In this document: positions 37,379 to 37,669 of the stretch, piece by piece
Layout of the letters: every line of letters begins with the position of its first letter
Numbering within the stretch: position 1 is the first letter of the stretch
Assembly: GCF_016903815.1 (NCBI RefSeq)
Contig: NZ_CP069973.1
Strand: one strand, 5' to 3'
DNA: 64,000 nucleotides
From: Escherichia coli
Lineage (GTDB): Bacteria > Pseudomonadota > Gammaproteobacteria > Enterobacterales > Enterobacteriaceae
Notes under the pieces: generated by a model
The model's database searches: none
The model's input: the letters and a program-made list of their open reading frames with translations, nothing else
Told to the model about the DNA's origin: nothing
Translations under genes and position numbers: made by a program

Positions 37379-37669
37379 AGTAGCGTGGGATGATTTCACA
37401 ATTAGAAAGACCTGCATGATGAGCTAGAGAAGAGGCTGGTGATGCAAGGCGTCGTGCACGACGCGGATCACCGAGATGGGCATCGCCAACCAGACTGCTA
37501 ATTAGCCCATGAATAACAATCAGAAAGGACCATAACAGACCCGATAAAATGAAATAATAGAGACGATCAACGGGTGAAGAAAAAGTTCAAAAATTCGCTG
37601 TGGAGCAGGAAGGGAATTACCGAATGGAAAGCGTAGCCACACGCAACAACTGAAAGCAGTTTGGCAGAA

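Follow-up and report, generated by a model that had tools for sequence, protein, structure and literature searches.

A nested palindrome between espY1 and rluA of Escherichia coli lies inside a dead ISEc13-family transposase gene and is very probably a by-product of its codons

The gap between the genes espY1 (yabP) and rluA of Escherichia coli contains a nested palindrome, which had been picked out from the letters of a 64,000-nucleotide stretch of contig NZ_CP069973.1 (hereafter the window; all coordinates refer to it) as a possible operator or the remnant of a small element. Judged by nucleotide homology, the gap DNA from 37357 to 37711 is the truncated 5' end of an approximately 1.56-kb insertion sequence (IS) of the ISEc13 family, a close relative of IS50/Tn5. 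The idea of a remnant is right for this stretch as a whole, but the palindrome is not a structural repeat of the IS; it is an accident of the codons of the transposase gene. We consider it very probable that the palindrome is a functionless by-product inside this dead gene, a neutral relic. The region itself is a known IS remnant, for which RefSeq genomes of E. coli already carry a transposase pseudogene.

The symmetry is as originally described. The string GGTGAT-GCAAG-GCGTCGTGCACGACGC-GG-ATCACC is present exactly, its core GCGTCGTGCACGACGC is a perfect 16-bp palindrome, and the outer 6-nt arms (GGTGAT/ATCACC), spaced from the core by 5 and 2 nt, are fully complementary (Table 1). The surrounding stretch does lack any open reading frame (ORF) of 60 codons or more, but it measures 407 bp, from the espY1 stop (37338) to the rluA stop (37746), rather than the ~370 bp first reported. 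The two genes are convergent, so that the 3' ends of both face the gap. Its largest ORFs, of 40 and 45 aa, are both on the minus strand (37520–37642 and 37567–37704) and have no Pfam match; we rejected them as small proteins. Both belong to the IS leader and, in the transposase sense, precede the former start of the transposase gene. To call the spacer untranslated, as the original prediction did, is literally correct today, but the DNA is decayed coding sequence.

The identity of the gap DNA is most evident from searches at the nucleotide level. A megablast search against 5,426 complete E. coli genomes gave a full-length match to the gap in 2,460 of them, where the overlapping features are named ‘transposase DNA-binding-containing protein’ or ‘IS4/Tn5 family transposase DNA-binding protein’, and it also matched genes for ‘IS4-like element ISEc13 family transposase’ at other sites with ~83–86% identity. 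For two strains, one identical and one of K-12 type, the NCBI annotation pipeline PGAP reports a pseudogene (‘frameshifted; incomplete; missing C-terminus’) that maps to 37355–37533, which places the palindrome inside a transposase pseudogene. With blastn, comparison to ISEc13 copies, including a full-length element (L002), a remnant in an ST131 island (L003) and further copies, gave 80–81% identity over ~360 bp (E = 1e-89 and 4e-96), while an intact ISEc13 on a Salmonella plasmid (L016) is 88% identical to the remnant. These paralogous copies occupy unrelated sites: beside pgtA, in a tRNA-Leu island and on plasmids. Homology to them runs from ~37357 to ~37711 and stops at a decayed outside end; related copies end in ...TGTGTATAAGAGACAG, whose complementary strand reads as the Tn5-type terminal repeat CTGTCTCTTATACACAAGT.

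At the protein level, the full ISEc13 transposase matches the Pfam domain Tnp_DNA_bind (PF14706) at 9e-19 (67 bits), contains DDE_Tnp_1 as well, and aligns end to end with Tn5 transposase structures (HMMER, E = 5e-81). The minus-frame peptide of the remnant matches the same DNA-binding domain at E = 1e-4, with 22.4 bits for a gathering score of 24. Its reading frame is thoroughly broken. The former transposase ATG (37533–37531) is followed by a premature TAG at codon 12 (37500–37498) and by frame-disrupting insertions of 4 bp near 37484–37494 and of 1 bp near 37402, and the sequence is cut off after ~codon 59, at the EGAY motif; owing to this truncation, the second IS end is absent from the window. 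Measured against what defines a mobile IS4-family element, the remnant falls short in having no DDE domain, only one end, a premature stop and frameshifts, and because of these defects it can neither move nor make transposase.

The palindrome is explained by the codons it contains. On the minus strand, the motif covers codons 20–31, which encode the conserved transposase DNA-binding stretch G-D-P-R-R-T-R-R-L-V-S-L, and both GDPRR(T/A)RRL and its frame are kept in the remnant. The intact ISEc13 copies read GGT GAT CCG CGT CGT ACA CGA CGC CTT GTG TCA CT (GDPRRTRRLVS), the counterpart of LGDPRRTARLV in Tn5 transposase, and every copy examined forms 7/8 core and 4/6 outer pairs. They are near-palindromic because the two Arg-Arg pairs (CGT CGT ACA CGA CGC) use reverse-complementary codons; the imperfect motif of the O157-type, ISEc13-like form is AGTGACGCAAGGCGTCGTGTACGACGCGGATCACC. 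Relatives that encode the same peptide motif do so without the dyad, with 2/8 core and 0/6 outer pairs in IS50, 3/8 and 3/6 in a Vibrio relative, and 4/8 and 1/6 in a Cupriavidus relative, and the palindrome is therefore a codon accident of one subgroup. Since these relatives keep the peptide and not the dyad, we also rejected the idea that the living IS conserves the motif for a role in cis, for instance as a hairpin in its mRNA or as a site for transposase. A terminal inverted repeat of the IS was likewise rejected, because the motif is coding sequence in frame and is separated from the IS end by ~220 bp.

Set beside ISEc13 (IS4 family, IS50/Tn5-like group), the remnant keeps the outside end, the hairpin after it, the leader, ~59 codons and the frame of the motif. 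It differs in representing only the first ~23% of the element and in its pairing, which is 7/8 plus 4/6 in living copies and reaches 8/8 plus 6/6 only in the window allele. The likeness extends to the DNA-binding domain of IS50/Tn5 transposase (PDB 1MUH, 1MUS, 4DM0), where the aligned LGDPRRT(R/A)RLV is the stretch encoded by the palindrome; in IS50, however, the corresponding codons (CCT CGC CGT ACT GCC CGC) have no dyad symmetry. The full-length ISEc13 used for these comparisons (1,558 bp, L002:1782-3339, from E. coli SCU-101, beside pgtA) is bounded by 19-bp ends like those of IS50 and flanked by a target duplication of 9 bp, GTCTTACAG. Its outside end agrees at 18/19 positions with that of an IS50 copy (L012), in which the IS50 outside end CTGACTCTTATACACAAGT was verified, and its other end, CTGTCTCTTGATCAGATCT, is the same at 19/19 positions as the IS50 inside end described in the literature. 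These ends are unusually close to those of IS50 although the transposases have clearly diverged (HMMER alignment); an N-terminal fragment shows ~52% against IS50-type copies.

Viewed against the whole window, the palindrome is no more than chance gives. One perfect 16-bp palindrome was observed in the 64 kb, where ~1.0 is expected from base composition, and 33 distinct loci match or beat the motif as a 35-nt hairpin, compared with 20–25 in local-composition shuffles. The motif 35-mer folds to -17.6 kcal/mol with RNA parameters and to -11 kcal/mol with DNA parameters, and shuffling of the 35-mer alone gives z = -3.7, a figure that ignores the ~64,000 positions searched. The original prediction had proposed to look for the palindrome elsewhere; within the window there is no second copy at ≤ 3 mismatches, apart from one chance-level match.

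Nor is the palindrome a stable feature of the locus. With the 49-mer 37431–37479 as a query, ~2,075 orthologous E. coli records were recovered, with an exact match in 345, one mismatch in 266, and 3–4 mismatches, representing the O157-type and K-12-type alleles, in 1,464; paralogous IS copies accounted for 1,068 further records. The perfect form occurs in ~17% of locus-bearing genomes, for example in strain 7/2 (NZ_CP023820), and the dyad is broken in ~71% of them. Conservation, by which the original prediction had proposed to judge the palindrome, spoke against it: among strains in which the spacer is 97–100% conserved, the palindrome is poorly conserved. The K-12-type alleles differ from the window at 37438, 37443, 37459 and 37463, all inside the motif and all lowering its pairing (to 6/8 in the core and 4/6 in the outer arms), and these are the only four K-12 differences within the 91-bp query 37410–37500. 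In the K-12-type allele the predicted motif hairpin is gone, and a different fold, at -5.8 kcal/mol, takes its place. Over the full 407 bp, four of the eight differences between K-12 and the window fall in the 35-bp motif, which was chosen after the fact. Among ten orthologous haplotypes, polymorphic sites make up 6/35 positions in the motif vs 20/372 in the rest of the spacer (Fisher p = 0.017), so that the motif is ~3 times more variable than its surroundings. A second cluster of differences (37544, 37557, 37558 and 37566) falls within the IS leader, shortly before the former start codon, and may be a recombination patch between alleles.

The O157-type allele is the same as the IS copies at 37438, 37443 and 37457, and for this reason we take the imperfect form as ancestral. 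The reconstructed events then comprise three that improve pairing (T37457C, A37438G and C37443T), three that break pairs (C37459G, G37463A and C37469T) and one that is neutral (A37438C). In the history that we favour, an ISEc13-family IS would have arrived with or next to espY1 between djlA and rluA and would later have been cut off after ~codon 59, with the near-palindrome (7/8) inherited from the ISEc13 Arg codons. After the death of the gene, T37457C would have changed a Thr codon (ACA) to Ala (GCA) and made the core perfect, and A37438G together with C37443T would have completed the outer arms. These would be three ordinary, neutral transitions in the lineage of the window, with other lineages drifting the opposite way, and we infer that the palindrome has no function today.

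Several observations nonetheless weigh against so simple a history. All three derived motif substitutions on the lineage of the window improve pairing, and 3/7 of the events on the tree do so vs 6–12% expected per event (P = 0.005–0.04, before allowing for the allele having been picked as perfect). This excess of improving changes is a hint that something directional, be it templated mutation or selection, was at work and not pure drift. Some regulator may also bind the perfect allele. In addition, the Pfam score of the remnant is just below gathering, and its identification is mainly based on nucleotide homology.

A directional process of the templated kind would be the ‘correction’ of a quasi-palindrome, in which the nascent strand switches template within an imperfect hairpin and copies the opposite arm; the motif would then be the footprint of a known mutational mechanism, still without a cellular function. 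Quasi-palindromes are hotspots of template-switch mutation in E. coli (PMC7202029), and our locus resembles these in that an imperfect repeat has been perfected by substitutions at its mismatches and that local polymorphism is raised. Consistent with such an origin, the ancestral-type allele and the IS copies form a quasi-palindrome (7/8 core, 4/6 outer), each of the three improving changes turns a mismatch into a pair, the motif carries the ~3-fold excess of polymorphism over its flanks (Fisher p = 0.017), and a perfect inverted duplication 60 bp away (37339–37378) points to past fold-back copying at the locus. In contrast to the known hotspots, however, the changes here are natural polymorphisms on separate branches, with as many breaking pairs as making them, and templating is only putative. 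Strain L011 has 37438G without 37443T, while K-12 has 37457C only; because the improving changes thus fall on different nodes, they represent separate single events and not one templated tract. Moreover, all of them are plain transitions, the pair-breaking changes are equally numerous with one further change being neutral, and the allele drew attention precisely for being perfect, an ascertainment bias. We therefore regard perfection by template switching as rather unlikely, and extend the same doubt to the fuller scenario of stepwise correction in one E. coli lineage, with the 17-bp fold-back duplication marking the IS-truncating break 60 bp off. Should template switching prove true, the ~2,000 sequenced alleles could calibrate the rate of templated changes in the wild.

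Readings that assign the motif a present role fare worse than the neutral relic. A 16-bp perfect dyad with extra flanking symmetry fits the size and shape of many operators, and as a site for a dimeric regulator it might govern a small transcript that has escaped annotation, or form a roadblock between the two genes. But both neighbouring genes end, rather than start, at the gap, a scan of 37200–37850 for sigma-70-like promoters found no site, the dyad is broken in most locus-bearing genomes and about half of E. coli genomes lack the locus. The dyad is also accounted for by codons, at chance level, and has no other copy in the window, so that the operator first proposed appears highly improbable. 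We know of no E. coli operator consensus that the motif resembles, and the papers examined contain no mention of a transcript or regulator in the yabQ–rluA gap, with ISEc13 appearing only as an annotation label. A role at the RNA level is very unlikely too, be it within a small RNA or as a stem-loop that stabilizes or terminates read-through transcripts of rluA (minus strand) or espY1 (plus strand). The -17.6 kcal/mol fold and the position of the spacer in the 3' regions of two convergent genes would suit such a hairpin, but no T-run follows the motif on either strand, and the terminator scan, which flagged stronger hairpins on either side (37675–37696 and 37339–37378), passed over the motif on both strands; we accordingly rejected an intrinsic terminator. 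The stem is moreover destroyed in K-12-type alleles, and the window holds 33 equally good hairpins. A known RNA family was rejected as well, since the sole Rfam match, to asX2, scores 19.2 bits vs a gathering score of 70 (E = 0.27) and lies at 37650–37695, off the motif.

Intergenic palindromes in E. coli are often repetitive extragenic palindromes (REPs), and REP elements make up the version of this spacer found at the empty site. The motif, like a REP or a bacterial interspersed mosaic element (BIME), is a GC-rich intergenic dyad between convergent genes, at the position that REPs hold in genomes without the espY1 islet described below. Yet it has no sequence similarity to the REPs of the empty site, it is single-copy in the window but for the one chance-level match noted above, and among the listed E. 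coli matches to the 49-mer all fall under transposase annotation except one unannotated partial match. The motif also lies in frame within the coding part of the transposase gene, with the IS end ~220 bp away. Together these observations refute an origin, whether as copy or as remnant, from a small repeat of the REP/BIME or miniature inverted-repeat transposable element (MITE) kind, and leave it scarcely credible.

The remnant forms part of a larger islet that is present in some E. coli and absent from others. The gene order in the window is djlA (35425–36285, plus strand), espY1/yabP (36580–37338, plus strand), the gap, rluA (37746–38405, minus strand) and rapA. In about half of the 5,426 E. 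coli genomes, the stop codons of djlA and rluA are separated by only 116–149 bp of REP elements, and in these islet-free genomes homology to the window ends precisely at 36283 and 37746; each boundary of the islet coincides with one of the two stop codons. Just after the djlA stop, the ~60 bp with which the islet begins (36284–36343) share 92% identity with an unannotated stretch of the E. coli plasmid NZ_CP135245.1 and may represent a piece of another mobile element at the left edge. In the window, espY1 is an intact gene whose 252-aa product, ‘T3SS effector EspY1’, has pentapeptide repeats (Pfam PF00805), and 15-bp tandem repeats lie within the gene at ~37148–37200; the gene is split into yabP and yabQ in K-12, and length variants elsewhere are annotated as ‘pentapeptide repeat-containing protein’.

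Two hairpins flank the motif. On the espY1 side, the hairpin at 37339–37378 is the strongest 35-nt structure in the window (DNA -19.7 kcal/mol, z = -8.6) and does not vary among the orthologous loci examined. The right arm and the loop belong to the ISEc13 coding sequence. The left arm (37339–37355), which abuts the espY1 stop, repeats the right arm exactly in inverted orientation and is found in none of the IS copies; this suggests a fold-back or template-switch duplication made at the break that truncated the IS. On the other side, the hairpin and T-run at 37675–37696 lie 50 bp downstream of the rluA stop and form the first terminator-like site after rluA. This is probably, by prediction, the rluA terminator in islet-bearing strains; in islet-free strains REP elements follow rluA. 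The hairpin and its T-rich tail are native to canonical ISEc13 (L016), and any use of them by rluA would therefore be a co-option by position only. A local adaptation of the T-tail was rejected, because L016 already has the hairpin, the T-rich tail and an 11-bp segment that is missing in L002 and L003.

Table 1. Features in and around the gap between espY1 and rluA (window coordinates).
Feature	Position	Strand	Description
espY1 and IS-remnant islet	36286..37745		Presence/absence variation; about half of E. coli genomes have 116–149 bp of REP elements instead
Hairpin with perfect 17-bp arms	37339..37378		At the IS truncation junction; terminator-like on the minus strand
Transposase N-terminal pseudogene	37355..37533	-	PGAP ‘transposase DNA-binding-containing protein; frameshifted; missing C-terminus’
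ISEc13-family remnant	37357..37711	-	80–88% identity to ISEc13 copies; outside end, leader and ~first 59 codons
Nested palindrome	37438..37472		Minus-strand reading GGT GAT CCG CGT CGT GCA CGA CGC CTT GCA TCA CC (G D P R R A R R L A S)
16-bp core GCGTCGTGCACGACGC	37449..37464		GCGTCGTGTACGACGC on the plus strand in intact ISEc13 copies and the O157-type allele, 7/8 pairs
Terminator-like hairpin AAATCCCCG-AGTC-CGGGGATTT then TTTGTTTCTG	37675..37696	-	Directly after the IS outside end
Decayed 19-bp outside-end inverted repeat CTGCCTCTTGTACATAAAT	37693..37711	-	15/19 to the ISEc13 end CTGTCTCTTATACACAAGT, 16/19 to the L003-type end

The palindrome adds no new biology, and the region that contains it is a known kind of object. 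It does carry a lesson for the scanning of genomes: because decayed coding sequence can mimic regulatory symmetry, the first step with a perfect dyad in an ‘ORF-free’ spacer should be its translation in all frames and a comparison with genes of mobile elements. Of minor value on the side, the locus shows an espY1 effector islet replacing REP elements between djlA and rluA, and an IS-borne terminator-like hairpin placed directly behind rluA.
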